Source of the DNA: Candidatus Abzuiibacterium crystallinum
GTDB lineage: Bacteria; Omnitrophota; Omnitrophia; Omnitrophales; Abzuiibacteriaceae
Direction: 5' to 3'
Length of the DNA stretch: 64,000 nucleotides
Assembly: GCA_002787155.1 (NCBI GenBank)
Contig: PCVY01000023.1
Coordinates: 6,828-70,827 of the forward strand
In this document: piece by piece, positions 19,957-52,800 of the stretch
Layout of the letters: each line of letters begins with the position of its first letter
Numbering within the stretch: the first letter of the stretch is position 1
The notes under the pieces: model-generated
Seen by the model: only the letters and a program-made list of their open reading frames with translations
What the model was told of the DNA's origin: nothing
Database searches by the model: none
Position numbers and translations under genes: made by a program

Positions 19957-19979
19957 TGACGCTTTGCCATGGCAAACGT
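19957..19979. promoter_or_regulatory. near-perfect 23-bp palindrome GACGCTTTGCCATGGCAAACGTC (core TTGCCATGGCAA), candidate operator upstream of the MerR-type gene
   Basis: Read directly, about 140 nt upstream of the 20115 start. Confidence 0.3.
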
Positions 19980-20114
19980 CAACAGAACCCAGTCTTTTCC
20001 CAACAAATTTTTCTCTTTTCGTTAAAGATTTCCGTCTCCTGTCGATATTTATGATAGTACAGGTAAGAGTACTTCCTTGTTCCTGGTTCCTGGTTTTAAA
20101 GAGAGCGACTCTGA

Positions 20115-20366
20115 ATGACATTGATCCGAAAAGGGCAGCTGGCAAAAGAGCTTAACATTCCTTGGCCGACCGTGAAGTATTACACGGCAGTGGGGCTTTT
20201 CCCCGTGGCGGGCAGAACGCCCAATGGTCAGCACTTGTACCACTTACCGCTCATTCGAGAAAAATACGAACGCATCAAAACGCTGAAACGTCAGCGTTTG
20301 ACGATCGGTGAAATTATCGATCGTCTCAAAATGGAGAGTATTGTCCAAGAAACAAGCGCGGTTTAA
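20115..20366 (+). CDS. MerR-family helix-turn-helix protein (short, effector domain absent)
   Basis: 83 aa. '[36 protein letters not shown]' is a MerR-type HTH. Confidence 0.55.
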
Positions 20367-20389
20367 GCGCGCGCGAGAGGAGAACGGCG

Positions 20390-21445: not shown

Positions 21446-21454
21446 ATTATTCAC

Positions 21455-23320: not shown

Positions 23321-23334
23321 ACACAGGACAACAG

Positions 23335-23946: not shown

Positions 23947-23955
23947 GCAGATACC

Positions 23956-24489
23956 ATGGCACTCAGCAAAAAAGATAAAATTCAATTAGGCATCATCGTG
24001 ATGATGGTCGGACTGATTATTTTTAAATTGCCGGACTTCGTGCGGTTCGTGAGCGGTACCACACAAAAAGCCTCCTCAGGCGTTCCAAATGCCTTACCGG
24101 CACTGCCCGAGAATGCGCCCGATTTTTTGAAGGCCATGGTCATGCAAGTACGCAGCGGCACCGCTCATCCTCATTTCAATTTAACGCAAGAGCGGGCTCT
24201 TAGAGAACAGCAAGCGCTTCTCAAAGAACAATCCTGGGGAAGAGATCCGTTTTTTTCGATCCCCATTGATGAATCGCGGTCCAAAAAAATCGAAGTCACC
24301 GACAGCTCCGAATTGGTTCTCAAAGCGATCTCATTAAAAGGCACAACCGCCATGGCCATTATTAACCAAACGGTCATTCATGTCGGTGATGAAATTTTGG
24401 GAATGACTGTCAAATCCATTGAGCGCGGTCGTGTGATTTTAGCGAACAGCGAACGCGAACGTGTTTTACGTTTTGGAGGCATGACATGA
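23956..24489 (+). CDS. pilP: PilP-like lipoprotein/alignment protein
   Basis: 177 aa with an N-terminal hydrophobic segment and a C-terminal beta-domain 'GTTAMAIINQTVIHVGDEILGMTVKSIERGRVIL'. Confidence 0.5.
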   Translation: MALSKKDKIQLGIIVMMVGLIIFKLPDFVRFVSGTTQKASSGVPNALPALPENAPDFLKAMVMQVRSGTAHPHFNLTQERALREQQALLKEQSWGRDPFFSIPIDESRSKKIEVTDSSELVLKAISLKGTTAMAIINQTVIHVGDEILGMTVKSIERGRVILANSERERVLRFGGMT

Positions 24490-31425: not shown

Positions 31426-31701
31426 ACAGTTCTTCACTATTCCGTATATATATGAGTCATCGGGGAATCAATCCCCGCTGGCTCAGGGTGAGAGGTCTGG
31501 AAACTCCCAGACCCCTCATATATATAAAATATGACCTAATATATGACTATTATAAAATAGAATTATATTATATTAATGTAAGTTGTTTATATATAATGAC
31601 TTACATATCATATTTTTTTCATTTCTATCCTTGTAATTTACCGGATATGCGGTAGACTTTCTAAAGTGCTTTAGTAAGTCAGTTCGCATGGTAAATAATG
31701 C
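31426..31701. promoter_or_regulatory. AT-rich 276-nt intergenic region upstream of the giant gene: 12-bp inverted repeat TATATATATGAG/CTCATATATATA (31445-31456 / 31515-31526) enclosing two GC hairpins, then a highly AT-rich presumed promoter tract with a GTAAGT..ACTTAC inverted repeat
   Basis: Read directly. I could not assign -35/-10 hexamers with confidence. Confidence 0.4.
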
Positions 31702-31800
31702 ATGTTCATCCCTAAAAATATCCAGAGAGCCATAGCCTTTTTTCTTGCCATTTCATTCTCTTTATCGAATGGCCCAACGCTTTTACTTGCCGAAACTTAT
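31702..31800 (+). other. N-terminal signal-peptide-like / signal-anchor segment of the giant protein
   Basis: 'MFIPKNIQRAIAFFLAISFSLSNGPTLLLAETY': positively charged n-region (K5, R9), a 12-aa hydrophobic core, possible cleavage at LLA|ETY. Confidence 0.45.
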
Positions 31801-34800
31801 CCGGGAAGCAGCCTGCCATACCATGCGAGCTCTGTGAATCCAAATGCTATTTTGGATTCCCTTAAGCTTCCCGGTGAGTTAGGCATTGTTCAAGAGGTTT
31901 ATAGCGCGGTACCAGGTACAACGGTGCCAGGTTCACAGAACCCGGCACCGGCTGTACCTGGTACCGGAATTGGTTTCAAAGTTAATCAACTGGTCATCCT
32001 CGTGCAAAATGCCCACGCCAATTATGATTCAGAGTCAAACGTCCGCAAAATCATCCAGTTCTTCCAAGAGCACTATCAATTAGGACTTGTTTTACTGGAA
32101 GGCGGGGAAGGCAAGTTAGACCCGCTTTTTTTTAAATCTTTTCCCGATGGCAAAATAAAAGAAAAACTGCTGGATCAATATTTAAAACATGGGGATTTAC
32201 AAGGCGGTGAAGCAGCAGCCATTTTGAATCATTCAAACAACCCAACGAGTTATTGGGGCATTGAAGATGAAACTTTGTACCAGCAAAACAAAGCGGCCTT
32301 CTTAAAAGCCATTGTTCAAACGGATCAAATCTTAAAACAGCTTACTCAAAAAGAAGCCGCACTCGAGGAAAACATTGCTTCATTGCCTGAATCATCACAA
32401 ACCTTTTACAAGGCTTGGCAGGCTTTTCATGCGGATGAGATGAATTTGCTGGAATACGTGAAAACGTTAGCTGAGCATACATCGGGTACCGGTTCTGTTG
32501 ACAGTGTCATTCCCGCTCGTCTTTGGCGGGAATCTACTGTGATCGGTGCTCTTGTGCGCTCATTTCCCGAACTTGCCAAATTGTTGGAAGTAGAGAAAGG
32601 CGAGCAAGCCCTCCAAAAAAGCGAAATTGACATGACCGTCAACCAACTGTTGAAAGAATTTCAATCAACTGCGCTGCCGGCGCTGTCAGTCGAATCACAG
32701 AAAGAATGGGGCCAGCGGATCCAGGATTATCAAACCGGCCGGCTCGGCGTGGGTTTTTTGATCAAACAGCTTGAAAGTTTTCTTACCATTCCCGATGTTC
32801 TAAAACCTGCTATTCAGCACGCCCAAACCATTTCTTCCGTCCGGGGAACAGAAATATTCCATGAACTTGAGCATTTAGAGAATGCTGTTCGCGATCAATT
32901 GCCGGGGCGTGAGCGCCTTCATCAAGTTAACGAACTGCATCTCTTGAAACGGTTTGCGCGTTTAGAAATTACACATGAAGAGTGGAAGGTCATTGCGAGC
33001 GCAGCGAAGCAATCTCAAGACCAAGGATTGCTTCGGTCATTTCATTCCCTCGCAATGACAGAAATGCTTAAGAACCATTTCACTTTCTACCAACTCGCAC
33101 TCAAGCGTGACGGCATTTTATCCGGCCGCATTCTCGAAATCATGCGCCGTGAATCTCAAAAAGTTTCGCTCGTGGTGACCGGCGGTTTTCATGAAAGCGG
33201 TATCAAAGAGCGCCTCCGGGCAAACGGCACCGCTTATGTTTTGATTTCTCCTGCGATTCAGGAAGTCGGATCAAACGAGGCTTACCTCAATGCCATGCAC
33301 GACAAGCGTTCTTTTATGAAATATTTTCAAGGCAGTTATTGGGATGCTTTGGCAAAGGATTACATGCAGCAATCGTCAGCGGCTGCGGGTCCGCAGGAAG
33401 AAAAGTTTATTTTTAAGCAGTGGCGCGATCAACTCATCCAAAACACGCTGCAGGAGGGCAGAATCACGCAGGCAACGCGTTACACGCGCTATTTGGATTC
33501 ATTTTTACAAACCGAGGGAAAACCAGCGGATGACAAAGTTGGCAGAAAAACTCAATTAGAAGGTGCTTTCGAAAGTTTCCTTTCAACTTATTTTAAACAG
33601 CATCAAGCTGATTTGAATGCCAAGCTTGATCATTTTGCGGCAGGTTTCAAAAATATGCTCACACAGGGCACCTTCACGCAAGGGGCGGTCGAAGCCTTGT
33701 TGCGTCAAACACAAGTCCTGCAAACGGCTCAACTCGCACCGGATCTCGCTTTGATTCCGGCCTGGAACCAATTTCATTTAAGTGAAGCAACGATTGAAAC
33801 ACTGCCTGATATCAACCAACCTCTTTGGCTCGAGCACAAGCAAAAATCCGAACTCAGGAGTGAAGAGGTAGACTCTGATTATTGGTATGCTTATGGTGAG
33901 GAATTCCTTATTTTGATGGAAGAGGTGGGGTACCGGATAGATGAAACTGACCTTGAAGGTGATATAACTCTGGAGGTAGAGACAGTATCAGACGATCGCT
34001 TTCCTAAAGATTTTAGCAAATTAGCTAAAAGTGTTCCCGAATCGGACCTCACACGTTTACGCGACACATATATCCATATTCTAAAGAATGCCATTGGGAA
34101 AAGTCGAACACTTGAGGAGATAGTTGAAGGCTTGAGCACTTTAATATTAAGGCAGGCAGGAATTCGATTAAATGACAGAAAATTAATTGAAGCCATTACT
34201 GATATTTTACTAACCTATAAAGAAAAAGGGGTGACGGGACCCACCCTGCAGCTGCGCCACGTTTATCTATTTCCAAGATATGGTGATGTGAATGAAATCA
34301 TTCAATTACTGGCCAACCATCGAGGGAAACGCGGAACCTTGAGCCAAACCCAACGGCAACTGATTGCACAGCAACTCGAAAACATGAAAGAGCAATGGCA
34401 AGCAAATTACGAAAGAGCTCAAGCCGAAAAAACCGAAGAACCTAAGGTTGATGGTCAACCCAAAACCGGTGAATCGCTTTGGCTGGAGGGTCAACCAAAA
34501 CCCGAACTCAGAAACGCAAAAGATTATACTCAGATGAGTGTCAAAGAATTGCTTGTAGAACTTCAATCAACTCGAAGTCAAAGTAGTCAAGTCAATTTTA
34601 AAATACTTAGGATTACCAGCGAGCTGGAGCAGCGCTCAGAGAAGATGTTAGACAGCGAGATAGTGGCGACTATCAATGCTTTACTTTCTGCATTGATGTT
34701 AATTGAGCCATCCAGCGAGGATGCGCTTCACGCTCACACTTCATTGAGGGCGGTGTTAGAACGATTGATAGAGGAAGTCTCTCAAGATGAGCTTGTTTCT

Positions 34801-37800
34801 ATAATCCCTGTTTTACATACAACACTTGAACAAATTCACGGAACGAGCAGTCAAGCCAATATGGCCAGAGTAACCATTACACGAATATTGGAAAAACTCT
34901 CGAAAAAGGTTCCTCTCCCTGCGTTGGCCAGTATTCAGAATGCCTTACTTTTAGCGCTCAAATTGACCGAAGGTTCAGATATTGATACAAGTCACACCAG
35001 AAATAACATAGCTCATTGCTTGGCTTTGGTCACACTGCGTTATTATCAGGTTATTCATTTGACTGATAATAGGTTACCCTTCATCAGTTTAGAAAAACTT
35101 TTGTCAATGGTAAGTTCCGGTCCGGATCGTATTTCACTTTTTCCTATTTATGGGGATCTTGAAGTGATTGGTCAAATCCTGCAATCTCAAGACCAGACAA
35201 ACATGATACAACAACTGAATGCTTACCGGGAACAATTGATGGCACAGTATCAAAGGGAACAGAGATCAGGGATCAGGGGACAGGGAACAGGGAACAGCTT
35301 GCCGGATCATGATCCGCTTTGGACAGCGGGGGTTGCCGGCGGCGTGAATGCGGGAGCAGGAGCTGACCGAGCAGAATTAAGAAACAAAAACTATTCCCAA
35401 ATGACAGCAGACGAACTGCTGCAAGCGCTCAAGTCTGTTCAAGGGACGAATGAAGCGTCGACGGATACTAGACGAGCTCTTTCAAATGCGCTGAATGCTG
35501 CTTTCAGAAGAATGAATCAAGAAGAACTACCCGCCATTTTTCAGGACTCGCTCGCCGCGATCAAAGAAATTGGTGAAAGTGATGAGCGCACTCAAGCTAG
35601 AGATTGGATTGCCATGCCACTCTTTGCCCTCATCCAAAAGATTGACGAGGATCAGCTTGCTTTCGTCTTTGAAAATCTGATAGCTGTTCTAAGAGAAATA
35701 AAAGGATCGAGTCATGCGGCGATTCAAGTACGATTCAGCATCATACAAAATTTAATCTTGATTGTGCACCGCCGTCATCATCGATCTTACACAAGCCCCG
35801 GGGATAAACTCGCTCAGGCGCTTCACGTCCTTTTCTCAGCTGCTTCTTCAAAAGTCTGGGTTTTTGAAACGTATGGCAGTTTACATGCGTTGGATCAAAT
35901 CTTTGAATCCAAAGATGACAAAACAATCATTGCAAAACTGAGCGCTTACAGGGAACAATTAATCGCACTGTCTCTAAGGGAAGAAGCGCCGCGGGTCAAG
36001 GGTCAAGAGCAGCAAGACACGGGCGGCGGATCAGGGGACACGGATCAAAATGATTCCATCTGGGCAGCCACTGTCTTGGGGCCTGCGAATGTGAGCGCCT
36101 CTATCAAAATTCATTCATCACGGTCTGAATTACGCATGAAACGCCGTTTGGATCCTTTAGATCAACTCTTGAATGATCTTAAGTCACTCAAAGGTTCGGG
36201 TGATACCACAAACGGCATCAGGGCAGATCTTGCGGATGCCCTGACAACATTGGGCAGAAAATTAACCGAATCTCAATTATTTCTTATCGTTGATCCCATC
36301 ATTACACAATTAGAACAAATTGAAGGATCACGATATACGGCCAATCGGGCAAAACTGGCCATTACCTCATTCATTAATATGGCAGCATCGCGCCTTTCGC
36401 CTACTCAACTGGGCGGTTTGGTTAAGCCATTATTTAACCAAATTGTGTTCAAACGTGAACTGGAAGAATTGACTTCAAACATACCAGTTTCATTTGGCGA
36501 CAGTTTGCTGGAAGTTGTCAGAGAAATCGATCAAACCCAATTACAGGAAGTGGCACGTTTACTGTTTGATTATTTAACAAATCTTCCGGATGACTTGGAA
36601 TACACAAATCTAAGTCTACGTTCTATTTGCCGGGCTTTGACAATGGTATTTAAACGTATCGATACCTTCCCATGGTCGGAAGCAGTTGCTGCGTTTAAAA
36701 CATTACACAGAAACACTGAGCAGACCCGAACATTCTACCCAGCCTTTCCATGGATTTCAGATGTTTTAGCCATGGCGCTCCTCAGAATGCACCAGATTGA
36801 AATTGAAAAAGGGAGGGACAGCCTTTTTTCTGCGCTTTCCCGTCTTTTGGAGTTTCATAAGGACGACACGGTTCTTTTTCTGCGTCATGGAGATTTTAAC
36901 GAAGTTAATTCCATCCTCCAGTCTCACGCGGATCGTTCTACCAAAACCGCGCAACTCAATCATTACCGCGAACAATTACTGGCCTTACATCAAAGGGAAC
37001 AGGGAGCAGGGAGCAGGGAACAGGGAACTCCGCCACACAGCGTCGGGCGGATCCGTCCTCCGGCGGAAGGGATCAGGTCACAGGATACGGATCACGAACT
37101 CTGGCTCAGCGGACCGGTGGGGGCAGGAGCAGTTGGTGTTGGCGCAGCAGTGTTGAATACCAAATCGGAGCTCCGAACTCATGGAGATGATGAATATGAT
37201 GTCATGGGTTTTGAGTCAAAATATTGGAAAATGGATTTAAACGAGTTACTCGATGAACTTTGGTTCATCTTATGGTTCAACGAAGAAGGGTGGGGAAAAA
37301 GTTTTGATAGGAACACCATTATTGAAATTACCGATCATATTCAAAGGAAAAGTAAGGAAGCCGATCAAGATGAACTTGTTCCTGCCGCCCGGCGGCTTTT
37401 TGATGCTTTGGAAAAAACGGTGAAGTATTTCAATCGTGACACGGCGGCACCGCACTTGGCGGTTGCCAGAGCGCTTGCGGCCGTTCATTGGAAGATTCAT
37501 GGTTTCAATACTTCGGAATGGTCAAACGAGTTATTTTTGACGCTCGAAGATATTTTTGTAATTGCCATCGGTGAGAAATCACTTTTCTTAAGTTACAGCA
37601 GCCCGGCTGCCATTAAGCAAATTCTTGAGCTCAAAGATCAAAATGCCATGATTTACCAACTCAAAGCGCTGCGCGAACAAATTCTTGCCGCCTATCAAAG
37701 AGAACAGGGAACAGGGGACTCCGCCGCACATCGTCGGGCGGATCCGTCCTCCGGCGGAAGGGAGCAGGAACCGCGGGACACGGGATCACATGAGCCTCTT

Positions 37801-40800
37801 TGGACTGCAGGGGTAGGCGCCGGCGTTCTGCTATCGGCCAAATCAGAATTACGCGTGCAATTTTTTCAGATTGCTTTAACAAAGCTCGTTGACTTTGCAA
37901 GACAAAACGCATCTCTTTTCTTTCGATATGTCATCAACCGTCAGAAGGTTGTTGAGCGGGATGATGACGATTATGAAAAAATGAGTACCGATGAACTATT
38001 AGACGACCTTCAATTTATTCACCTGGCTTATGCTTTTCGCCATGTCCCGCCTCAGCGCAGGTGGGATATTTCACTTTCGCTTGGGTGGCGCGTGCAAAAA
38101 ATGACAAAACCCGAACTTCTCGACTTTTCAAGAAAACTTCTCACTATCTTAACAACCACAAAAGGTTCTAGTGAAAACGCACATCAAATAAGAAGTGCCG
38201 CTGCCGGAGTCTTTAAGGAAGTGGTTAGAATTATTCCAGATACCGAATTATTAGCTATCTTTAAGGCGCTTTTTTCAGCATTAAAAATAACGCACCAGTC
38301 GCTTAGCGTTGCCTTTAGTCACGCCGCCAGGATTGAAGAGCGTGCAATCACAGACACTTTTGAAATAATACGTAAAAGAATGCCTAAAGCTGATTTTTCG
38401 CAAGTGGTTGACGAATACTTGGCAGTGTTGGAAGAAATAAAGAATCGAAAATTTCTTTTCTGGGAAAAAACAATACAACACCAAACTCTCCATTTAATGG
38501 GGGAAGCAGTCTATTCCTTTCCGGAAGCTCAACTGAGGCGAACGGCTAAAGAATTGATCGCTATTTTACGAGCTCTCAAGGACCAGGGCGGAAATGTGAA
38601 CGAAATTCGAATTTTATTACTTTATGTTTTTCGGAACATCGTCGAGCGTTTACCCGAAGCTGATCTGGGCGGCTATGTGACTGAATTACTCTCAACGTTT
38701 GATGCTATCAAAGGATCGAACGAACACGCTGGAGAAGCAAAAGGAGACATAGGTCATATTTTGTCGAAAGCAGCTGAACGGATGCCGCCCTCAGAACTAC
38801 CTCATTTTGCGGATGAAGCATTGATCAGGCTAGAGTCAACGCCAAATCGGGGAAATCAAGCTTATCAGACAACGCGAGCGATGGCGGAGGCTCTTTGGGG
38901 TTTTGCAAAGGCAGTTGATCCCGAAAAGGCGGATCCGCAAAAGATGTCTAAAATCATGAATCTACTTCTTGAAAAATTAAAGCTGATCAAAGGAAAAGGT
39001 GACAATGAGGAGTGGGCCAAAATACATATCTTGCTCGCTTTAGGAGCCATAGCTAAAAAAATCCCACATCAAGAGCTTCCCGGGCTTTCCAATGCAATTC
39101 TTTCAGAGTTAACGCATTATGAGTTTAATGACGGACTCAAAGGCCGTTTAATTGATGTGCTGATAGCAATTGCAGACAGCATTGATCTTGCTGAGCTGCC
39201 AAAGATATCAAACGAGCTTCTGGATGTTTTAAAAGAGATGGGAGAATTAAATGATGACGAAGATGGAGGGTATCAAACACTCGTCACTATAGCTGTATTT
39301 TTTGAACAGATCACACCCAAAATCTCAGAAACAGAACTCCCTCGTATTTCAAAAGCATTTCTCACTGCACTCGCCGCCATCAAAGGATCTAGTTACAATC
39401 TAGACCGTGTGAGAAGGTTTGTCGGAGACGTGCTGGCTTTGATATCACTGAGGATCAATCACTTACCATTGGATAATAAGCCATTAATTGAACAGCTTCA
39501 AAAGTTCTTCTCGCTTGCTCCGGCTAGTCATTCACTTTTTCCGATGTACGGCGACCTAAATGAAATTGGGCATATTTTAAAGCTTGAAGATCACAAGCAA
39601 GTAATAGCCCAACTCAATGCCTACCAGGCACAATTACTGGCACGGTATCAAAGGGAACAGGGAACTCCGCCACACAGCGTCGGGCGGATCCGTCCTCCGG
39701 CGGAAGGGAACAGGGAACAGGGGACGGGGATCAGGTCACAAGACACGGATCACGATCTCTGGCTCAGCGGACCGGTAGGGGCGGGTATCCGGGCAGAATT
39801 AAGAAACAAAGACTATTCCAAAATGACGATCGATGAATTGTTACAGGCACTTCAAATGGGAAGGTCTGATCAAGAAGCTCAGGAACTTAAAATTGGAATT
39901 GCCAAAGTTTTAAAAGAATCAGCTAAAACCATGCAACCAACGGAACTTCAGCATCTTTCTAATAGGCTCCTTTTACTGCTAGAGGCAGCACCGGCAAAGG
40001 GGAGGGCGGGCCGGCAAACCATTCAAGCAGTTGCAGATATTTATCAAGTGATTGCGATGAAAATTGACCCTGCCGAATTGCCTAAGATTTTAGAGGCACT
40101 GCTTACCGCCTCAAAACTACCGCTCAAATATGACGTTGACGGCAGAGATGCTAAAAGGTTCATTACGATTGCATTGACAAAAGTTGCTGAACGAATCCCA
40201 GAAGAAAAACTTCCTACCATATTAAATTATGCGCTTCTTGAATTAAGCCATTATGATTTGGATGATCAATTAACATACAGTTTAATTTTTGTGCTCGATG
40301 CAGTTGCTAACCGAATCCAACCAACCGAACTGCCAAGAATTTTGCATGCCTTACTCGATAAGCTTAAAACAATCAAATCATTAGATGATAAAGATGAAGA
40401 GGATCTCATTTGGCAGGTAGTGATGATAGCAGCATTTACCTTTAAATCGATTGCCGCCAGAATGAGCGCAACGGAACTACCGGCCATTTCGAAAAGACTT
40501 CTCGAAATACGCTCGCTTGCCAAAAGAGATAGCACTCAGGCGGAAAAAACAAGAGACGCTCTCTTAGCGCCTTTTCCTGCCATTGCTGCCCGTATAGACA
40601 AAAAAGAATTACCTAACTTATTTGATCAATTTGTTGACATTTTGAAAAATACACACCGAACAGACGCATCGCCGGGATCAAGTTCTAACATGAGATTGCG
40701 TTCGCGCAAAGTATTGGCAATTATTTTTCTCAGGAACCATCAATTACCTCTGGATGATGAAACCTTGGCCAAAGCGCTTGAGAACCTCTTGGGCATTCAC

Positions 40801-43800
40801 TCTCCTACCGATTCACTTTTTCCCATTTATGGTGAGTTCTCCGAAATCGACCGCATTTTACGATTGCCAGGCCGTGAACAAATGATTGCTCAGCTCACTA
40901 TTTACCGGAAACAATTAATCGCACAGTCTCAAAGGGATCAGGGAACAGGGAACAGGGAACAGGGAACAGGGGACGGGGAACAGGGGACGGGGATCAGGTC
41001 ACAAGACACAGAATCAAATGATACGCTTTGGGTAATTAGTCCTGCTGTCGAACGCTCCGAACTCAGAACCAAAGATTATTCCCGCATGAGCGTTGATGAA
41101 TTGTTAAACGAACTTCAGTCAATCAAAGGATCAACTATTGATGTCAATTGGGCAAGAGAGGCCATTGCCGATACCCTCACAGAAATATTAAAAAGAATTG
41201 ATCCAACCAAACTTCCCGCTATTTCACAAGCCTTGTTGACCGCTTTAAAAGAAATCAAAGGATTTGCTGATGATGCTAATCGGACAAGATGGGCCATTAC
41301 CTTTTCCTTCCCAGAAATATTGCAAAGAATTGATCCAACCGAACTCCCCGCTATTTCACAAGCGTTGTTGATCACTTTAAAAGAAATCAAAGGATTATCT
41401 AATGCGACCAATGAGGCAAGACGGACCATTACCTTTTCCTTCCCAGAAATATTGCAAAGAATTGATCCAACCGAACTCCCCGCTATTTCACAAGCCTTGT
41501 TGATCGCTTTAAAAGAAATCGAAGGATCAACTGATGCTGCCAATCAGGCAAGATGGGTTATTGCCGATGCCTTCAGAGAAATGCCAAAAAGAATTGATAA
41601 GTCTGAACTTCCCGCTATTTCACAAACCCTCTTAGCTGCTTTAAAAGAAATCAAAGGATCAACTATTGGTGCCAATCAGGCAAGAGAAGCTATTGGCAAA
41701 ACCCTAGCTGTTATTGTCTTTCGTCATCATCAAATCCCTGTCACCGATGAGACAAATGATTTATTGAGCGCTCTTCAAGATGTCTTTACACTTGAAATGA
41801 ACGGTGTTTCCATCTATCCCATAGAAAACCATCATCCATTGAACAACCCGGACAATCCCATTCATCAAATCTTTAAACAACATGATCAAGATTACGCACA
41901 AATCATGAGCCAGCTCAATCGTTACAGGGAACAATTGAGCGCACAGCATCAAAGGGATCAGGGAACAGGGAACAGGGAACAGGGGACGGGGATCAGGTCA
42001 CAAGACACGGATCACGATCTCTGGCTCAGCGGACCGGTAGGGGTGGGTGCTGGTTTAACAAAAGCCGGTCGACAGTCCGCAGACCATGATAAAAGGGTAG
42101 AACTGCGAAATGAATCACCCAACCTAGAAGACTTGAGTCCAACCGATGAGGCCCGTGAAGTTGAAGTGGTCATTAAGGCAATTCATGCATTGACAGATTC
42201 GGTTTGGAAGCAACCGCTGCCCCGTCTCAATACCCGATCGAACGCAGGAGCTGAACTTGCTTCATTAGTGAACCAGTGCGTTCACTTGATACGGGATACA
42301 AAGATGACGGTTAACGAGCAAATACAATTGGTGAAGGCGTTCCTGCATTTGCTCGAGTCTTTCGAGTCCTTATACTTGAAGACACTGGTTGGAAGTGCGA
42401 GTCATTTGCAACTGCATTGGCTGCTTAGGCACGTCATGACGGCAATACCGTTCGGGCAAATCACGCCTATCCGTCATGAGATCTATTTATCCCAAGAAAT
42501 AGCCAGAAGGCAGGGTCCTTCCCGTAACACAACCTTGCATATAGATTTTCTAAGCGAAATATTAATCATGCTTGCATTGAAGCAAGCAGGTTTTAAAGGA
42601 ACGTGGGATACGTTAGCCGTTGATAAAATATACAACACAAACGTGTGGAAAGAATTGGGTGATTTCTATTCGGGAACTGTCAGGGTGCGGAGGGAAGGTA
42701 TCGGATTCCTGCATCAATATGCTGATGATGCTGAAATTAACAAGATTATAAATATCTGGCTGGATGATAGCGGCAATCTTGATCACACGCGTGCAGAACA
42801 AGTCATCACTCAACTTAAGCTCTATATCGATCAGTTGCTTCATCAAATTAAAATAAAAGCAAATGAAGAACCCGGGACCGATGATGCTGAACAATCAGCT
42901 GACTCTCGTCCGGAAGATATTTGGCTGCGGGGCTCGTTCCGCCCTCAAGGCGGATTGGGGCCTTCAAAATCTGAATTGCGCACGGCCAAGTCAAAATCTG
43001 ACCTTGGAAAGCGCTTAACCCAATTAGCAAAAGATTTAGAAGCCGAGGTTGAAGCGCGGCAGATAAAAGGATTGGCAAAGCAATTGCTTGAGAATAAAAG
43101 CACCCGCACAAAAACAGATGCCCAAATCGAATCAGAGATCAAAGAAAAAGCGGCGGATGATGCCGCTATGGACCGGTTAATTGCTCATTTAAAAATTGCG
43201 CGCGCTCTTAAGGAAGCGGGAAATGATTTTTTGAGGGATTATGAACAAACGCATTATCTCAAATTAGCTAAAATTCAGCAGCCAAACGCTGTTTTGTGGG
43301 GTCTGCGCTTTCTGGATCTTGATGATATCCAGGATCCGGAAATTCGCCGGTTGATGGGGAAACTTCAGTCACTTTTGATGGTGAACGAGTTCTTTGGGCG
43401 TTCTAGCGCCGCCTTTGTCGAAAGCGTGCTGACGGAATTTATTGTCAACACCGTGATCGGAGATGATTTTGGCATGACGGAACTCTTGACGTCTCTTGAT
43501 CCTAACCAAAACCTGATCGAATTGTTTCAAGATTGGGGCGTTAACGTTCAGCTCAAATACAGCCGGGAGCACACGGGCATTCAAGCGCTCTATGACATAG
43601 CACGTCTTTATTCCAAGGTGTTCCCGGAGTTCAACAATAATGCACGTACCGGTTTTATCACGCATGATTTCAAGGAAATGCTGAGGGAGCCTGAAGGGGA
43701 TGCCGATCGAAATCAGCAGGCACGCGCGTTGGCAAGGGGAGGAGCCGCGCAAGCACTCAATCTGTTAACCATTCGCTTGCTGGGTTTGCCAGCGGGGCGC

Positions 43801-46800
43801 ACCATGGAACAACAGTGGCAGGAACTTTTTAAAATCACCGAAAAAGGAATTCCCAATCTTCAGAAACCGGAACATTTAAACGGCGCGCGCGCCGAAGATA
43901 TTTTGGCGGGTCTGGCAGAAATTTCCAAGACGTCTCAAGGACAACTCAAAGAAGTGGTGGCTGAGCTCATCCAGGGACGGTTTAAATTGCTGGTGAATCA
44001 CGATGTCGAACGGTTTAAACAAATTGGCATCATCATTGGTTTTACGGGGATTGACGGTTTTGCAAAGATTCCGTTCGGCCGCTTGCGGGAAAAATATCAT
44101 CTGACCGAAGGCAGTGAAGAGGAAGGCCGGCTGCTCAAAATCGTTGCCCAAATTTCCAGAACAGCCCGGGAAGGGACAGGCGGCCTCATTGAAGAAGTGT
44201 TTGATCTTTACAGCCAAGAAGCCGGCGAACATTTGGACGATTTGAACAAACTGCTTCAGGCATTTAGTTACTTTGTGCGGCTTGTGAATTTTCACCACGA
44301 TTATGAACGGCTTGTCTTAGAAGGTGATATCGGCAAGGTGAACAATGAAGCGCTCTTTGTCAGCTTGCGGGATTTGAAGCGCACACTTGATATCGTGAAG
44401 AAAAACGATGCCAAAGGGATGGACATTCGCGATGCCATTGCTTCTGCTGTCAAGCGCCGCTATTACAACCGCTTGAGCATCGAAGATCGGGGTATTGTTC
44501 GTGATTTAATGGCGAGACACCGGCTGATTCATGAAAACGATCTCCTGGATTTTGATTATGTGATTGATGGTTTCAAAAACGGCAGTTCCCGAATTCGTAT
44601 CTATCGCAAACGTAAATCAGGCCCGGCGCGGTTTAAACGAACGGAAGTCAAGCCCGGCGAATATAAGATGGAATTAATTCAAGAAAGCGTGGGAAAACCC
44701 GAACTGCTGCTCGAGATTCCGCTGGCTCAGCCGCTTGCCAACGTTGACCCGAAAATTATTTTAAACGAAACGACCCGCCGTAACCTGGCCAATATTCTGG
44801 ATGCATTGGAAGTGGAGGAGGGAAAGCGCTTTAATCCGGTGCTCGAATTTGGCGTGACTTCAGGCGGCAAAAGTACGACGGCAGCGTTGGTTGCCAAGAT
44901 TCTGGGCGTTGGTTTTACGCGCATTCAAATCAATGAACGCACCGATGAATTTGACCTTTTCGGATCGTTTCAGCCTTATGAAATCAATATCACGTTAGAA
45001 GAAGCCATCCAGCTTTTGCAGGAAGCGCTGGCCACGAACAATTATAACGGTCTTGAGGATGTGTTTAGTCGTTTAAAGTCGGATCAAACGGGACAATTTT
45101 GGGAAAATTATTTCAATGCTCAAGAACGACAGACAATCGAGCTTGGAAAGGACAGCCGTTATCCCCAGCGTTCGGTATTGGAGCGTCAACGAGCCGCCAT
45201 TCGTGATAAATTAAAACAATTGGCGGATAAACAGTTAGAACTTGCTCAATCGCTCAAAAGTTTAAGCGCTCAGGAACGCCGCCTCATTGATTCCAAGACA
45301 GATAACCCTGTCTGGCAAGCGCAGCTTGCCCAGCTGCGCCGGGAAGAAGCGGAAGGTTTTGATCAGCTGAACCGCATCAAATCCATTGCATTTATGTTAA
45401 ACCACGAGGTGGGCCTTCGGTATAAGGAAGGGCGTTTTCTCACGGCTTACAAGCGCGGAGATCTCATTCTGCTTGATGAAGTGAATTTAGCCAACGAAGA
45501 AATGCTGGGCGTGCTTTATCAATTACTCACTTTGGGTTATTTGGAATATAACGGCAAAGTGATCGAACCGCCTTTGGGCAAACAAGCCCGCATTCTAGCC
45601 ACGGCCAATCCCTCCGGTTATGCGGGCCGCAGACGCATGAGCGAAGCTTTTATGAACCGTTTTGAAATTATCCATGTTGATGAAATGACGGATGAGGAAA
45701 TGCGCGATATCGTGGTTGGGCAAATGATGAAAGATCTCATCGCCTCAGGCCGCTATACAGCCGGGGATTTTGAACAAAACTCGGATGAAGCGCCGGAAGT
45801 ATGGGATAAAAAAATCAACAAGATTTTACAGGAAGAATATGGTATTACGCGCGAAAGCACTCGATTGTTAGCTGGAGTTCAGCGAAAATTTAACAGCATT
45901 TTGGCGACGGGCAGTTTTCCGCGCATGGGATCCGACTCCAATTATGTCTTCACGCTTCGGAATCTTCAACGGATCGCCGGCGATGTGAAAGAACGCAAAG
46001 AAAATGGCGAACGCATCACCCTTGAAACCTGGATTCGGGAAGCGTACGGCGAATATGCCGGCGTCCTCATGCGGCCCAGCACACAGCCTTCCTACACCGC
46101 AGAGCGGCTTAAGCCTGATGAATCATTGCCGGCGGAACATCATTTATGGGATGATCCGGATTACAAAACCATTCGGCGGGTATTTACGACTTTCATGGGT
46201 GAATTGATTGCCGGAGAAAGTCATCAAAGTTACGATGACGCTTTTGACGAACTCATTCGCCGGCATTTTGAAACCATTCCGTATGTCTATGACTCAACCG
46301 CCCATGCCATCAAGCTGGACGGTCTTCTTACCCAAGGTGCTGAGCCAAACGATCAAAACCCCATTGAACCTTTAATCGAAGTGGGGTCAACCAAAATGGT
46401 TCAAAGGCAAATTTTAAAAGGCATTCGCCGGAATATCCCAACGCTCCTTGTCGGTCAATCCGGCGGCGGTAAAACAGAAATCATCGGCGACTTAGTCAAT
46501 CGCCTTGGCCGTCAATATATCAGCGTGTCTTTGGGCGATGCCACACTGGAAAGTCTGATCGGCACCATGGAATACAACCGAATGGAAAAACGTTTTGTTT
46601 ATCGGCGGGGTGTGCTCGTCAAAGCCATGGAAGAAGGTTCGGTTTTGGTGCTGGAAGAACTCAACATGGCTAAATCGGGCATATTAGAAATTTTGAATGA
46701 ATATTTCGATGACGGAACGTTTACCAACCCGTTTACCCTAAAACAGGTAGCGGTACACCGTGACTTCCGGTTGTTCGCTACCATGAACCCGATTCAGGGT

Positions 46801-49800
46801 GAGACGGGAGAAAATTTAGGCCGCGTGAGTTTGTCGCCCGCTCTCAGAAACCGCTTTCGGGAAATTTGGGTGCCGCACAAGAAAACGGACGCTGAAATGA
46901 ACGAAATTTTAATCGGAAAATTCAAGCAATTGGGTGTTGAAAAAATCGAAAAAGCAACAGGCGCCAAAATCATCGGCTTTTTCCGTGCCTATGAAGAGGC
47001 TTTTAAAGATCAAGCTGATCCGGTGTATTACACCAGTCTGCGCGATTTGAATCGGATTGCCAAAATCATGGCTTATTTAATCAATGAGCTCGACATGCAT
47101 GAGTCGGATGCATTGGCGCGCGCCATTGACCGCGTTTACCGTTTACGCATGCAAAACAGCGGCGCCTTGGCAGTGGTCGATCAAATTCTCATTGAGCTTA
47201 AAATCAAGATCCCGGGTGCCGGTCAATTGTCGTACCAGTCTCGGAATGGCGTCTTGGAAGTGCGCGATGGTCAAACACTGGTTGCCAAATTAGACCTTTC
47301 TTTGATACAGGCCAAGCTTCGCGACCGCATCCGCGGAGAACTCAGTGCTGATACGGATCCGGCAGAACTTGAAGCACTGACAGAGAAGCGTCTAAAAACT
47401 CTCTTGGATGAAGCTGTCTTGGTAGAAAATCCGCGCACGAAGGCTCATCTGCTGGATTTAATGGAAGCCGTCACGCTTCCTTCCGGCGAAGTGAAAAAAG
47501 GAAAATTTAACCCGATTTTTCTTTTGGGTGAGACCGCCGGCGGGAAAAGCTCCCTTACCAAATATTTGGCACTCCATCTTTTGGGCCAAAACTATACGCG
47601 CATTCAATTCAACGAACGCACGGATGAGTTCGACCTTTTTGGCGCCTATGAACCGCGCGAGCTTCACATGGGTCTGGACCGCGCTTTTCGGATTGTTCAA
47701 AATGCGATGGAACAAGGGGAGTGGGTCAAAATCAAGAAAGCCTTGAAGCTTTGGCAAACGGGGGCATTGACCGAAGATGATCTGTCCGAACTTGAAATGA
47801 TTGAGAAGGTGGAAGAGCGCATTCGCACGGTAGATTTAGAGGCCTCTCAACAGATCACAAAGATCTTAAAGGATGCTTCCGAGGAAGATGTCTTAGGTGA
47901 CCCCGGTCAGAAACGTGAAGCCGAACGCAAACTCAAAACCATTGCGTTTTTGATTGAAAATAACATGTTAAATGTCGAGCTGGAATTTCGCGAAGGCAGG
48001 TTATTACAGGCGATCAGGCGCGGCGATGTGGTGGTGCTGGATGAAATGAACCTGGCGAATGAAGAAGCGCTCGCTGTTTTATATCAACTCCTGACTCTGG
48101 GTTATGTGGAGTATTACCACAAAGATACCCGGCAAGTCGAACGCATTACCCCGGCACCGGGCTTTAAACTCATGGCGACCGCAAACCCCGCCTCATATGC
48201 GGGTCGTCATCGGTTGAGTGAAGCCTTAATGAACCGGTTTGAGATTCATTATGTGATGAACATGACACCCCAAGAAATGACCGAGATTCTGCGCGGTGAA
48301 AATAGTCATGAACCAGTGTTCGAACGCGATCAGTCATTTCAGACCACTGTTGAGAAACTGACATTGCTTCAAGAAAATATCAATGAAGCGCTCCGAAACG
48401 GTCAATTTCCCGAAGTGAGTTCCGACCAAGTGCAAGGCTATTTATTTACGCTTCGCAATTTGAAACGTGTTTTACGGAATACAGCAGAACTCTTACGCCA
48501 AGGCGACAGTTCGCCGCCATCTGAGTCACTCATTCGACAAGCCTACCTTGAATACTTAGGCGTCCTCGGACGTTCAGACGCCTCCATCAAAACGCTGCAG
48601 TCTCTTTTCAAAGCGCCAAAACAATTTCCCCAATTTAACCCTGATTTTCGAATTTCCTTTGAGTCAATGACTATGCCCAACGGTCAATCGGGTATTTTAG
48701 CGGGTGGTTTCAAAGTCGTGAGACGTTTTTATGAAGATGAGGCAGAAGGCGTTTCGCACGATGCAGATGTCATTGAAGAGCTTGAAGAGGGTGCAACGAC
48801 TAATTTGATCCGCCAAGCAATTGCGAAAGGACTGTTAGATTCTCGGATGGCGGTTTTGCTGGTGGGGCAAAGCGGCGGGGGTAAAACAGAAATGATCGGT
48901 GATTTAGCAAGGCGTCTGGGCTGGCGCTACCGCTCCGTTTCGCTTGGTAATGCCACCCTGGAGAGTTTAGTCGGCGGTTATGCCATGGACCACGAAACAA
49001 AAAAATTCCGTTATATCCCCGGGATTTTAATCCAGGCCATGCGCGAAGGCGCCATTTTGGTTTTGGAAGAAATGAATATGGCACCGTCCGGACTATTAGA
49101 AATTCTGAATGAATATTTTGACGAAAGTACCTTTACCAATCCCATGACGGGACAGAAAGAAAAAATTCATCCCAATTTTCGGTTATTTGCCACCATGAAT
49201 CCGGAAAAAGGTGTGACGAGTACCAGCGAAGGCCGTGTCGGCTTGTCGCCCGCTCTTCGCAGCCGTTTCTCAGAAGTATGGGTGCCCCATATACGGACGC
49301 AGGCGGAAACAGAGAGAATTATTCGTAAGAAATTCAGCAATCGAGGGGTAAGCCATGTACCGCCCAAAGTGACGGAAGATATTTACCGCGTCTATGACCA
49401 ATACCGCCGGTTTGTTGAAGAAGGCAAAATTGGCCAAGAAAGCAACGAAGGCTATTACGTCGGTTTGCGTGATGTGGTGAAAATAATTGACCTGGTAGCG
49501 CAGGATCAATCGCGCGGCATTCCAATGGAAGAAGCGCTGCGTTTTGCCTTCAAACGAATTTTTTATTTACGCCTCAATAGCGATGCGGACCGCAAAACAG
49601 TTCAAGAAGAGATTCTAAAAACATACGACATGAGCAAGACGGAATACCAATGGAAAAGTGTGAATGACCATTGGGTGGTTAAGCGCACTCAGTGGCAAAC
49701 GGCAGAAGTTCCGAAGGCACTTTTGAAGGAAAAAGGATTTATTTTAACGCCGCAAAGCCAAGAAGAGCTCGCGCTTCTGCTAGAGGCAATGCAGCGCGGC

Positions 49801-52800
49801 GTGACTATTCAGGGCAAAGCAGCCGCGCGTTCCTTTAATCCCATGATGCTGTTTGGTGAGACTTCCGGAGGAAAGTCTACCTTGGTTGAAATTGCCGCCA
49901 GTATTTTCCGGACCCCCTTTACCCGTATTCAAATGAATCAACGAACCGATGAATACGATTTGTTGGGCAGTTACCATCCTGTTGAAGTGAAGTTGACATT
50001 TGAACAAGCCTATGAAGTCGTTCAATCGGTTATTCGCCAAAATCAAACACTGCGTACCGCACAAGTGCTGCGGGCTTTACACATCACGGATGATCACGTG
50101 AAATCGGTTTTGCGCATAAACCCTGATCAAACGATGCCCTTAGAGCAGCTTCAAAAGCGCTTTTTAGAAGAACATGTTTTGGCAAATGCACGGCAGGGAA
50201 ATCCCAAGAGCATTGAACAAATGAAAGATATCGGCGCACTCCTCTTGAACGGCGTTGCCGGCATTGAACTTATTTTCCGTGAAGGCATGCTGCTTCAGGC
50301 CATGGGCGACCGTGAAACCGGTCGACCGGGTCAAGTGGTTCTGTTGGATGAATTTAATTTAGCCAATGAAGAAGCAATCGGCATTCTTTATCAACTGCTA
50401 ACGCTGGGATATATCGAATTTCAAGGGCGGAAAATCTTTCCCGGTAAAGGGTTTCAATTAATTGTGAGCGGCAACCCTTCCCGCTACTCGGGCCGAAGGC
50501 GGATGAGTGAAGCTTTTATGAACCGCTTTGAGATCTTGAACCGTCCTTCAATGACCAAAGAGGAAATGGTTAAAATCTTGACGGAGAAATATGCTTTAGA
50601 AGCATCGGGGATTTCGAAATCCGGCATCGAAGCCCTGGTTGATTTGCAGTTCGACATCGAAGAAACGGCTCAGTCCATCGGTTTTGACTTTTTCAACCAA
50701 GATAACACGTACCGATTTAGTTTGCGGAACTTGGAACGTATTGTGCAGGATTTGAAAAAACGGATGGAAGTGGAGCCCGAACGTTCCGTGCAAGTCATGT
50801 TGCGCGAAGAGGCCTATTTAGAATATGCCGGTTTGCTTTCACAGTCCACCGATGAGGATGATCCGAAGAAGAATAATTTGAAAGTCTTAGCAGGTCTTTT
50901 TAAGAAACACTTCAATTGGGAGATCGATCCGGAAACGGTTTTACCCGAATTCAAGAAGCAGACGCTTGTTAAAGGAGAAGACGAATGGATTTCCTTAAAC
51001 GGGGTGCGTGTGAGAAAACTCTCACCGCATCAAATGTTAGAGAGTTTGCAGTTGGAATTAAATGAAGAAATCAGAAGCGGCGCCTTGGCAGATGATGATG
51101 GCGGAAAATTAGTGCTTTTAACAGAGGCGAATCTTGTGCGCATTTTAGCGCAGGTAGAAAAACGGCTCGCCAGTCATGATCCGCTTTCAAGAAAAGAAAT
51201 CATGCGCGAGGAAGCGCGCACGGAATATCTTAAGATGCTGGGGGAATCGCCTCGTTTGGTCAAGCGCTTAGACGAACTGATTAACCAGCATTTTTATACT
51301 CAAGCCGAGCGCATCGAGCCTTTGGTAGAACTCAAATCAACACGTTTGGTGCGCATGCAAATTTTAAAAGGCTTCCGTGACGGCGGCGTGATTCGTTCTC
51401 GTGATACGGAAGGACGGGAGGTTTTGAATCATCGTTCGCAGCCCGTGCTTTTAGTCGGACAATCGGGCGGCGGTAAAACCGAAGAAATTGCCGATGCGGC
51501 CAGGGAGCTCAACCGGCCTTATATTTCGGTGGCGTTGGGTGCGGCGACCATTGAATCGTTAATCGGCAGCTTTGTGCTGAATAGCGAAACGGGCACTTTT
51601 GAATTTCGAAAAGGGATTATGGTGCGCGCGATGGAAGAAGGGAGCGCGCTCACGCTCGAAGAGCTCAATATGGCGGAAAGCAGCATTATCGAAGTGCTGA
51701 ATGAATATTTTGATCGAGGAACGATGACGATTCAAGAGCGGAATGTTCCCATCCGCATTCATCCCAACTTCCGCTTGTTTGCGACAATGAATCCGACCGA
51801 AGGCAGAACCGGCAGAAATGCGGGACGTATCCCGCTGTCTCCTGCGCTGAGAAGCCGGTTTCGGGAAGTCTGGGTCCGCAATGAACGCAATAAGGGCGAA
51901 CAATACCGCCTCATGTTAGGCGGGATTCACGCGCTTGTTTCTTCTTTAATTACAAGAGGTCTGCCGGAAGATAGGCCGGATGAATTGGAAAACTTAGAGC
52001 TTGATTGGACACGCCGAAGATTGGCTGAGACCGCCGGGCAGCAGGTGCAATTCGCAAGCAGCGAGTCATTGTCCGCCGCATTAAAGGCGGGTCCGTCCAT
52101 TACACTGCCTCGCCATGACAGTTCAGCTATCCGCATGGCCAAAGCATCTGAAGACGGAACGCCCAAAGAAAAACCCACATCAAAGGAATGGGAGCGTATG
52201 GCTATCAATGAAAGAAAACGCATTTATGAAGAACAGTTTCGGATTGTGAGCCACGGCATCATGAACATCATGTCTTCCGATGAAGCCATCGAGTTAGGCC
52301 TATCAAGAGATGGAAGCCATCATTGGGCGTATGCACCTAGTATCAATACATTAATTTATAACAGCCGGGAAATCATGACTTTGAGCTTGGATGCGTTAAT
52401 CGGTGTCGGCGTTCATGAATCGATGCACCGTTACGGCACCCGGTATACGTCTCTTTTTGCAGACTTTTTAGATGCACAGAGTTTGGCGGGCAGTTTTTTT
52501 AATATTTTAGAAGACGGACGCATTGAAAATTGGGCACGTTATCGATTCCGGGGCGTGGAGCGGCCGCTGCGCACACTGAATGATGAAATTATTTTTGATT
52601 TTGAAGATGATAATGAAATGGTTGAGCGCATGATTAAAACTTCTAAAGATGGTAAAGACATAGGTCATGCCGGTGCCATCGGTAATTTCTTTCTTTATCT
52701 CGCAAAACGCGGATCAGATCCGGGCGCCGGCAAAGTCATCGAAAAGTTCTTAAAAGCGTTTGAAGAAAGAGATCCGGCTTTGAAAGAGGATATAGAAAAT

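Follow-up and report, generated by a model that had tools for sequence, protein, structure and literature searches.

The window, by which we mean the whole 64-kb stretch of DNA that was analysed, originates from Ca. Abzuiibacterium crystallinum and contains four copies of a short GC-rich sequence distributed between two genes. One of these is a giant ORF, whose modules are joined by linkers built from arrays of the heptamer GGGAACA, and the other encodes a membrane protein with TPR repeats. The distinguished features are as follows:

17912..19771, + strand: host gene 2, encoding a membrane glycosyltransferase-like (PMT_2/GT-C) and TPR protein of 619 aa
19028..19058, + strand: copy 4, 31 nt, with the spacer AAA, located in the GT-C/TPR gene and read as SAKGGSVLRR
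31699..64000, + strand: host gene 1, the giant ORF, of more than 10,767 codons and open to the end of the window
36994..37028, + strand: array of the heptamer (AGGGAAC), directly 5′ of copy 1
37029..37067, + strand: copy 1, 39 nt, with the structure TCCGCC-ACACAGCGTCG-GGCGGATCCGTCCTCCGGCGGA, read by the giant ORF as PPHSVGRIRPPAE
37720..37758, + strand: copy 2, 39 nt, with two substitutions in the spacer, in another frame and read as SAAHRRADPSSGG
39666..39704, + strand: copy 3, 39 nt, the same sequence as copy 1; the linker at approximately 41926-42030 is its empty paralogue
39705..39735, + strand: heptamer array, directly 3′ of copy 3
42938..42954, + strand: solo mini-hairpin (TCCGCC-CTCAA-GGCGGA) within a degenerate linker of host gene 1

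The 22-mer GGCGGATCCGTCCTCCGGCGGA occurs in the window as four exact matches (positions 19037, 37046, 37737 and 39683, all on the + strand), each with TCCGCC on its 5′ side. No further match was found in the window with up to three mismatches allowed, and 100 dinucleotide shuffles of the window yielded none, so the core reported in a preliminary description of this DNA is real. The three inserts that it had placed in the giant gene lie within one base of the starts given there, and each is exactly 39 nt long; the core at 19037-19058 in the GT-C/TPR gene is, as had also been noted, preceded by TCCGCC and read in another frame. The inserts are in frame and translated, as proposed, but the peptide of copy 2 is not a near variant of that of copies 1 and 3, since DSAAHRRADPSSGGR and TPPHSVGRIRPPAEG, respectively, are read in different frames. 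All three sense frames are used in the window: copies 1 and 3 give RIRPPAE, copy 2 gives ADPSSGG and the copy in the GT-C/TPR gene gives GGSVLRR. Independent assemblies (ENA, JGI, Logan and NCBI) contain all four copies with no indel, and the copies thus are not assembly artefacts. No insertion polymorphism was detected within the species of the window, as six of six assemblies carry all four copies. The solo mini-hairpin at 42938..42954 is possibly a single-unit relative of the element, a weak assignment.

The insertion point within the heptamer is identical for the three copies of the giant gene (..AC|AGGG..). Alignment of 11 paralogous linkers of this ORF revealed the 39-nt block in three and its absence from eight; the linker at 41926 lacks exactly the 39 nt and is identical over 85 bases 3′ of the insertion point. 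The three copies could originate from a single insertion that was later spread by intragenic gene conversion. In the case of copy 4, 24 homologues of the GT-C/TPR protein lack the approximately nine residues at this position. In the AlphaFold model, the corresponding residues 373-383 form a loop between helices 351-373 and 379-406, where the pLDDT value dips locally to 70. In our interpretation, this inter-helix loop and the flexible heptamer linkers of the giant protein are permissive sites.

Insertion of the element was precise. The ispH genes of loci L102 and L105, whose products share 88% aa identity and whose flanks show approximately 90% nucleotide identity, differ by exactly 39 nt (TCCGCC...GGCGGA), with no target duplication, and the empty site has no homology to the element. 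The loop that bears the insert is empty in most of 120 IspH orthologues, and the insert is extra relative to the solved structures. A clean indel between orthologues, of the kind that the preliminary description had suggested looking for, was found in one ispH filled/empty pair (39 nt), with the paralogous linkers likewise differing by 39 nt. For an element of only 39 nt, this filled/empty site is of textbook clarity.

The exact core was identified in 25 GTDB stretches and 53 metagenome stretches, which reduce to 63 separate instances, with 48 different element sequences. These copies occupy approximately 60 separate loci of metagenomes and MAGs, mainly those of Omnitrophota, and a single Omnitrophica MAG contains nine copies, one of them with a single mismatch. 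The exact core is also borne by contigs labelled Melainabacteria and Elusimicrobia. One copy resides in a gene encoding ComEC, whose nearest relatives (50-78% identity) are those of Parcubacteria/Patescibacteria, so this host gene is genuinely CPR. The contexts of the copies are unrelated and include ispH, the tail of dnaK, comEC, pyrB, scpB, trmD, genes for glycosyltransferases and giant proteins, and intergenic DNA. A widespread 22-mer had been expected to betray a composition artefact; as the shuffles gave no match, its abundance points instead to a repeat family. The family was not seen in IMG/VR, and the 14 matches to a 16-mer in viral contigs, all with both arms missing, were rejected as chance. 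A plasmid collection gave partial matches at chance level only. In Rfam, 10 loci had no match at the gathering score, and the region of the window gave only chance-level matches (E of at least 0.7). Literature searches by nucleotide string, peptide string and topic retrieved no description of this element.

The unit is composed of TCCGCC-spacer-GGCGGA followed by TCCGtCC-TCC-GGCGGA, i.e. two adjoining mini-hairpins with a total length of 30-39 nt. Hairpin A (TCCGCC-loop-GGCGGA) has a loop of 2-11 nt, and hairpin B has the form TCCG(t)CC-TCC-GGCGGA. The two are mutually inverted, unit 2 being the reverse complement of unit 1, and at locus L055 they constitute a perfect palindrome, TCCGCCAAAGGCGGA|TCCGCCTTTGGCGGA. 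A scripted scan of the collected loci for double hairpins, controlled with shuffled sequence (one match), revealed further examples with compensatory arms (CCAGCC/GGCTGG, TCAGCC/GGCTGA and CCCGCC/GGCGGG) and one perfect 30-nt palindrome; compensatory variants were found in both hairpins. Moreover, the collected loci contain 18 additional solo or arrayed hairpins (0.1 expected), and 15 of 60 copies have a stem that continues into the flanks for at least 6 bp (3.2 expected). Copies 1 and 2 form hairpins whose stability does not exceed that of shuffles with the same composition (z approximately 0). The flank consensus is TTY|...|RAAGG, in which the 5′ TTY preference is weak. Unit arrays or partial duplications occur, e.g. 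at L020, L021, L066 and L070. Copies are often centred in pre-existing palindromes or lie in CGTC-type REP loops, and in Omnitrophica GWA2_52_8 the core is central in a palindromic MITE-like repeat of approximately 120 nt with the termini GGTTCTGTT(G/A)A. All six frames of the element are open.

Copies covered by ORFs are biased in orientation, frame, length and location. Approximately 27 are in the sense and one in the antisense orientation. Intergenic copies lie in either orientation relative to the neighbouring genes and to GC skew, so the sense bias is confined to copies within ORFs, and the replication strand was rejected as its cause. The ADPSSGG frame (SATKxADPSSGG) is used by 17 of 26 copies in ORFs. 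Lengths of 30, 36 and 39 nt predominate there, while those of 35 and 38 nt are restricted to copies outside ORFs, and the ORF copies are located in loops, in linkers or at the ends of proteins. Translational bypass from one GGCGGA repeat to the other was also considered and rejected: the host ORFs are in frame throughout and the downstream domains are homologous in the same frame. Nucleotide identity extends to synonymous positions, whereas the codons on either side have diverged. The orientation found in ORFs places the anti-Shine-Dalgarno-like GGAUCCGUCCUCC, and not its complement, on the mRNA.

We interpret the element as a dispersed insertional repeat that is tolerated in frame, with a probability of roughly 0.75. 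It represents a family of very short GC-rich repeats comparable to REP/REPIN, i.e. a new family of a kind of selfish DNA that is already known, and is scattered through Omnitrophota, CPR and other uncultivated bacteria of groundwater. The first proposal of the preliminary description, a small palindromic element that is mobile or recombinogenic and whose in-frame insertions are tolerated, agrees with the occurrence at about 60 unrelated loci in several phyla, the clean ispH site, the use of three frames and the existence of intergenic copies.

REPs are short (20-40 bp) GC-rich imperfect palindromes present in many copies, which form the GTAG and CGTC super-families; the GTAG or CGTC tag is unpaired at one end, and the stems measure 5-13 bp (GTAG) or 8-9 bp (CGTC) (Di Nocera et al. 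2013, PMC3733652). REPINs are described as vertically inherited (bioRxiv 10.1101/2022.05.22.493013); for such elements, a core that is identical in different phyla would be unusual, which counts against our main reading. The element resembles REPs as a dispersed GC-rich hairpin repeat of 20-40 nt that is sometimes clustered or nested and has some intragenic copies, and it resembles REPINs as a doublet of inverted units that can fold into a single long hairpin or a pair of small ones. It differs from REPs in having arms of 6 bp rather than 8-13 bp and neither GTAG, CTAC nor a terminal CGTC. Further differences from REP/REPIN are the missing spacer between the units of the doublet, the absence of a RAYT match to approximate probes in approximately 500 kb of flanks, the core identical across phyla and the large share of copies within ORFs.

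Rickettsia palindromic elements (RPE), reportedly described by Ogata et al. in 2000 as 'selfish DNA in protein-coding genes', share with our element the presence of a palindromic repeat in frame in many unrelated ORFs, its translation and its permissive surface positions. However, RPE-1 measures about 100-150 bp and is known only from Rickettsia, whereas the element is 30-39 nt long, unrelated in sequence and hosted by free-living or episymbiotic groundwater lineages (Omnitrophota, CPR). RPE-4 and RPE-6 have been cited as intragenic CGTC REPs (PMC3733652). Intragenic REPs and the RPEs of Rickettsia thus have the standing of precedents for the element.

The miniature elements derived from IS200/IS605 (PATEs) undergo single-strand HUH transposition, with a duplication-free insertion on the 3′ side of a fixed tetra- or pentanucleotide. 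The element has similar hairpin ends, one with a bulged T, and a precise, duplication-free insertion, but it is far shorter, shows a weak TTY preference in place of a conserved 5′ tetranucleotide target, and no TnpA or RAYT gene was found near it (for such miniature elements and HUH transposition, see also PMC6006769). MITEs are recognized by terminal inverted repeats and target-site duplication (review PMC10969869). Like them, the element is non-autonomous and has terminal inverted repeats (the 6-bp arms), but it is shorter than 50 nt and the ispH pair exhibits no target-site duplication. We know of no parent IS. In yeast, a mitochondrial GC cluster is present in frame in var1. The mitochondrial 'byp' elements of yeast reportedly disrupt the reading frame, and the ribosome skips them (as attributed to Lang et al., PNAS 2014). 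GC clusters and byps are likewise short GC-rich palindromic mobile inserts within protein-coding genes; in contrast to byps, the element has bacterial hosts and leaves the ORF uninterrupted in its frame, which makes a bypass unnecessary.

According to the mechanism that we propose, new copies would arise as precise insertions of a unit without target-site duplication, with a preference for Y|RAAGG-like junctions or for the apex of a palindrome that is already there. In coding DNA, copies would survive only when the frame is kept, the orientation is sense and the site is a permissive loop, linker or protein end, and the survivors would be translated into short hydrophilic peptides. Antisense copies may be eliminated from ORFs, since with them the mRNA would carry the strong Shine-Dalgarno-like GGAGGACGGAUCC. 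The unit may move as single-stranded hairpin DNA with the aid of a trans-acting enzyme, either an HUH/Y1 transposase of the IS200/RAYT type or another one. When 126 small ORFs in the neighbourhood were scanned against Pfam, no transposase appeared within 3 kb of the copies among the 25 commonest families listed, and approximate probes for RAYT, IS200 and IS608 gave no tblastn match in approximately 500 kb of flanking DNA; as negatives, both results are weak. As no transposase gene was found near any copy, mobilisation would act in trans; the specific HUH single-strand mechanism is a tentative suggestion about which we are rather doubtful. It is unlikely, in our opinion, that we are dealing with a mobile element of ultra-small size (30-39 nt) which crosses phyla, is adapted to ORFs and supplies linkers to the giant proteins of Omnitrophota; its mover enzyme would be a not-yet-recognised one because no RAYT or IS200 gene was found nearby. 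Six open frames, length variants in multiples of three, an orientation that gives the mRNA GGAUCCGUCCUCC and the flexible SATKxADPSSGG linker are traits that fit such ORF adaptation.

Spread might also proceed without any dedicated enzyme. In that case, copies would result from ectopic gene conversion, or from switches of template from one hairpin-forming sequence to another in the course of replication or repair. The lack of an adjoining transposase and of target duplication is compatible with this, as are the central position of many copies in older palindromes or CGTC-type REP loops, the arrays and partial duplications, and the linker subtype common to copies 1 and 3, which is consistent with conversion. 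However, the ispH empty site offers no element homology to prime conversion, and an identical core in distant phyla requires a source copy in each genome, and hence horizontal transfer or strong constraint. We consider spread without a dedicated enzyme to have a small chance of being correct.

Less probable still is a core kept by the host as a functional RNA hairpin or protein-binding site (acting, for example, in mRNA stability, translational pausing or nucleoid organisation) rather than as selfish DNA. Such a role is suggested by the invariance of the 22-mer amid variable spacers and flanks, by the composite of loci L021 and L086, which is approximately 96% identical though its flanks barely align, and by the strong sense bias within ORFs. 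Nevertheless, the invariance is partly produced by exact-match searching, the gene contexts are unrelated, the element matches no Rfam family, and close orthologues work without it. The shared recognition site raised as an alternative in the preliminary description has no conserved genomic context behind it, but recognition could still be an added property of the element. A peptide module, i.e. a Pro/Ser/Gly linker selected as protein with secondary DNA likeness, might explain the over-represented SATKxADPSSGG frame; the three frames in the window alone and the many intergenic copies refute it for practical purposes, and the identity at synonymous positions beside diverging codons also opposes it. 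An origin by chance, from base composition or through an error of assembly or sequencing, favoured by nothing except the GC-rich composition, is refuted by the shuffles and by the agreement of independent assemblers and samples, while the spacers vary and the contexts differ.

As a dispersed insertional repeat tolerated in frame, the element adds a defined repeat family for Omnitrophota and CPR, whose mobile DNA is, to our knowledge, almost undescribed. Such repeats gather in permissive loops of housekeeping proteins (IspH, ComEC, DnaK tail) and in the linkers of giant proteins. If a mover enzyme were found, the cross-phylum identity of the core would be a useful marker of horizontal exchange among ultra-small groundwater bacteria. 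For annotators, the family accounts for the recurrent low-complexity strings ADPSSGG, RIRPPAE and GGSVLRR in metagenomic proteins.

Exact matches to the 22-nt core GGCGGATCCGTCCTCCGGCGGA were found at four positions of the window, three in the giant ORF and one in the GT-C/TPR gene, which confirms the sharing of this core claimed in the preliminary description. Allowing up to 3 mismatches revealed no additional match in the window, and 100 dinucleotide shuffles contained none.

19037, + strand, exact 22-mer (copy 4, GT-C/TPR gene)
37046, + strand, exact 22-mer (copy 1, giant ORF)
37737, + strand, exact 22-mer (copy 2, giant ORF)
39683, + strand, exact 22-mer (copy 3, giant ORF)
42938-42954, TCCGCC-N-GGCGGA hairpin, one of 18 solo or arrayed hairpins

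All four copies of the 22-mer are preceded by TCCGCC. The 22-mer comprises the right arm of hairpin A (GGCGGA) and hairpin B (TCCG-t-CC, TCC, GGCGGA), so the whole unit consists of two adjacent, mutually reverse-complementary mini-hairpins. A scripted scan for this architecture over 513 kb of collected loci (one match in the shuffled control) revealed variants with changes in both arms (CCAGCC/GGCTGG, TCAGCC/GGCTGA and CCCGCC/GGCGGG), as well as a perfect 30-nt palindrome, TCCGCCAAAGGCGGA followed by TCCGCCTTTGGCGGA. Solo or arrayed TCCGCC-N-GGCGGA hairpins accounted for 18 more cases vs 0.1 expected. The outer stem is lengthened by its flanks (at least 6 bp) in 15 of 60 copies, compared with 3.2 expected; the highest count among 1000 shuffles was 9. 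These copies are placed at the apex of CT-rich/GA-rich palindromes, within loops of REP hairpins of the CGTC type (ATTCCCGC..GCGGGAAT) or at the centre of a MITE-like repeat in GWA2_52_8. Two alternative folds are predicted: a pair of small hairpins, or a single long hairpin enclosing a small one. Regarding the folding raised in the preliminary description, copies 1 and 2 have a stability unexceptional for their composition (z ~0), and copy 4 and the copies with complementary flanks show z = -3 to -5.

The giant ORF is a single open frame from 31699 to the window end (>10,767 codons), and its modules are connected via linkers based on GGGAACA heptamers. The element block is present in three of 11 aligned linkers and missing in eight. 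The linker at ~41926, which has 85 downstream bases identical to those of the copy 3 linker, lacks exactly TCCGCC ACACAGCGTCG GGCGGATCCGTCCTCCGGCGGA, i.e. 39 nt. The three giant-gene copies occupy an identical heptamer position. Copies 1 and 3 are identical, share a linker subtype and are translated as PPHSVGRIRPPAE; they may represent one insertion duplicated through gene conversion. Copy 2 (translated as SAAHRRADPSSGG) has another frame and another linker subtype, with differences at two positions of the spacer, and copy 4 is translated as SAKGGSVLRR, three different reading frames being used in the window (copies 1 and 3, copy 2, copy 4). The giant-gene copies are in frame as described, and the GT-C/TPR copy is indeed read in another frame downstream of TCCGCC, but a common peptide or near variant holds only for copies 1 and 3, the separate frame of copy 2 having been overlooked in the preliminary description. 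Across the copy sites, the window is collinear with six independent assemblies and no indels occur.

GGGAACA arrays of the giant ORF are located at 35254-35297, 36994-37028, 39705-39735, 40933-40998, 41953-41997, 56200-56262, 57538-57581, 58471-58536, 61444-61488 and 62887-62949. Three units (21 nt) encode GNREQGT, the same cyclic peptide resulting from all three frames. Unit number varies between linkers, and gain or loss of one or two units would put the downstream frame out. Read from its translation, the giant ORF (31699-64000) appears to encode HEAT-like repeats of 44 residues (132 nt); P-loop/AAA-like modules appear to form a repeat block at ~44.8-51.9 kb, and the stretch at ~53.4-54.1 kb looks VWA-like. 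Module ends near 41.7, 57.3 and 63.8 kb are almost identical, pointing to a recent duplication or conversion within the gene. Locus L063 encodes a homologue of the giant-ORF N-terminal domain and carries the element at a different site.

Precise insertion was observed in ispH. The IspH protein of locus L102 carries SATNASADPSSGG, which is missing from P0122 (locus L105), an orthologue with 88% identity. The flanking DNA of the two genes is ~90% identical, and their alignment has a single gap, of 39 nt (TCCGCC...GGCGGA), the clean indel anticipated for orthologues, with no target duplication at this site. The sequence is ..CGG TAC^GAA GGC.. at the empty site and ..CGC TTC(39 nt)GAG GGC.. at the filled one. 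The flank consensus of the copies, TTY-element-RAAGG, reflects a target preference rather than a duplication, since TAC^GAAGG already stands at the empty site. Heptamer arrays (..AAC^AGGG..) match it loosely. The loop, which is extra compared with solved IspH structures, is empty in most of 120 Omnitrophota IspH orthologues, and several hold other family members there, e.g. TCCGCC GAA GGCGGA CCCGCC TCT GGCGGG (SAEGGPASGG). The window GT-C/TPR protein has a best relative only ~40% identical, and all 24 aligned homologues lack ~9 residues at the copy 4 site. In its AlphaFold model (mean pLDDT 88), residues 373-383, encoded by copy 4, are predicted to form the loop that connects helix 351-373 to helix 379-406, with confidence falling locally to 70.

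One hypervariable loop per family was distinguished in CPR ComEC (P0243-P0299) and Omnitrophota IspH (P0121-P0240) proteins, with peptides resembling translated palindromic repeats (PFLKGVPHSDEGRD, SFRKGG, SAEGGPASGG). Such repeats may accumulate in permissive protein loops.

The host of the window, Candidatus Abzuiibacterium crystallinum, belongs to the phylum Omnitrophota. When one genome per species was scanned for exact matches, the 22-mer was identified in 25 stretches, eight of them from Omnitrophica GWA2_52_8, whose MAG has a ninth copy with one mismatch. The remaining hosts are other Omnitrophota and "uncultured Planctomycetia" MAGs, along with contigs labelled Melainabacteria, Elusimicrobia, Nomurabacteria and Magasanikbacteria; one Actinomycetota match without the left arm looks like chance. 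A metagenome scan added 53 stretches, giving 63 instances and 48 distinct element sequences after deduplication. In nearly all of them TCCGCC is separated from the 22-mer by a spacer of 2, 3, 7, 8, 10 or 11 nt. Cross-phylum occurrence was verified at one locus, L033, whose element-bearing ComEC has its nearest relatives in Parcubacteria/Patescibacteria (50-78% identity); the insert recurs in a 78% relative, differing there by one substitution, and is missing from many orthologues. The family was not found in IMG/VR (14 matches to a 16-mer without either arm) or among PLSDB plasmids, no Rfam family matches it, and no description was found in the searchable literature.

Among copies within open frames of at least 200 codons, ~27 are sense and one, in trmD, is antisense. 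Two further antisense cases were discounted, one as an upstream region and one as a spurious frame. A few sense copies lie just 5′ of a likely start codon. The frame SATKxADPSSGG is used by 17 of 26 copies, ORF copies are predominantly 30, 36 or 39 nt long, and versions of 35 and 38 nt are confined to DNA outside ORFs. Intergenic copies show either orientation relative to neighbouring genes and GC skew, so the sense bias is specific to coding contexts. The conserved 16S rRNA 3′ end is GGAUCACCUCC. Judged from it, a plausible cause of the bias is the Shine-Dalgarno-like sequence of antisense copies, which would put a very strong GGAGGACGGAUCC within the mRNA; the sense copy carries the anti-SD-like GGAUCCGUCCUCC.

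The element has a hairpin architecture, inserts precisely without duplication, is dispersed and is selectively filtered, which supports the earlier proposal of a small mobile or recombinogenic palindromic element tolerated in frame. No transposase gene was detected within 3 kb of the copies among the 25 commonest of the 100 Pfam families assigned to 126 small ORFs nearby, nor by tblastn with approximate Y1-transposase probes. The main rival explanation is enzyme-free spread via ectopic conversion or template switching. We favour mobilization in trans, in which a single-stranded hairpin DNA form would be the substrate of an HUH/Y1-type enzyme or one of another kind. The finding would be of greater interest if this enzyme, or the cross-phylum transfer route, turned out to be new.

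Palindromic repeats inside genes are already known: intragenic REPs, mostly of Opitutus terrae and Rickettsia conorii, were listed by Di Nocera et al. 2013 (PMC3733652), some being equated with RPE-4 and RPE-6, and CGTC REPs occur in several phyla with no transposase (PMC3733652). Unlike the REP super-families, the element has neither the GTAG nor the CGTC tag, shorter arms, and a doublet structure with zero spacer between units; it therefore constitutes a new REP/REPIN-like family belonging to neither. As an in-frame, translated, selfish insert it is RPE-like in behaviour, but is not an RPE.

In GWA2_52_8 the element forms the centre of a MITE-like ~120-nt repeat. This palindromic repeat (L015, L016, L018, L024, L026, L027) has GGTTCTGTT(G/A)A at its termini and inner arms that are CT-rich/GA-rich, and resembles a MITE-like composite of at least 7 copies. 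dRS3-type CGTC/TGTC-tagged REP hairpins (GTCATTCCCGC..GCGGGAATGAC) are abundant in groundwater contigs (L054, L056, L058, L072, L093, L094, L100), where the element occupies their loops; at L058 an unfilled hairpin adjoins an element copy. The GT-C/TPR gene is embedded in a secretion/pilus cluster (9773-26147) encoding an MshE/T2SSE ATPase, T2SSF, N-methyl pseudopilins, PilZ, PilM and a secretin. An unrelated palindrome family, TGGGGTCAGGTCC..GGACCTGACCCCA, with 100% complementary arms of up to 24 nt, is found at gene junctions in the pseudopilin part of this type II secretion/type IV pilus-like cluster (14401-14457, 15454-15478 and 16049-16075).
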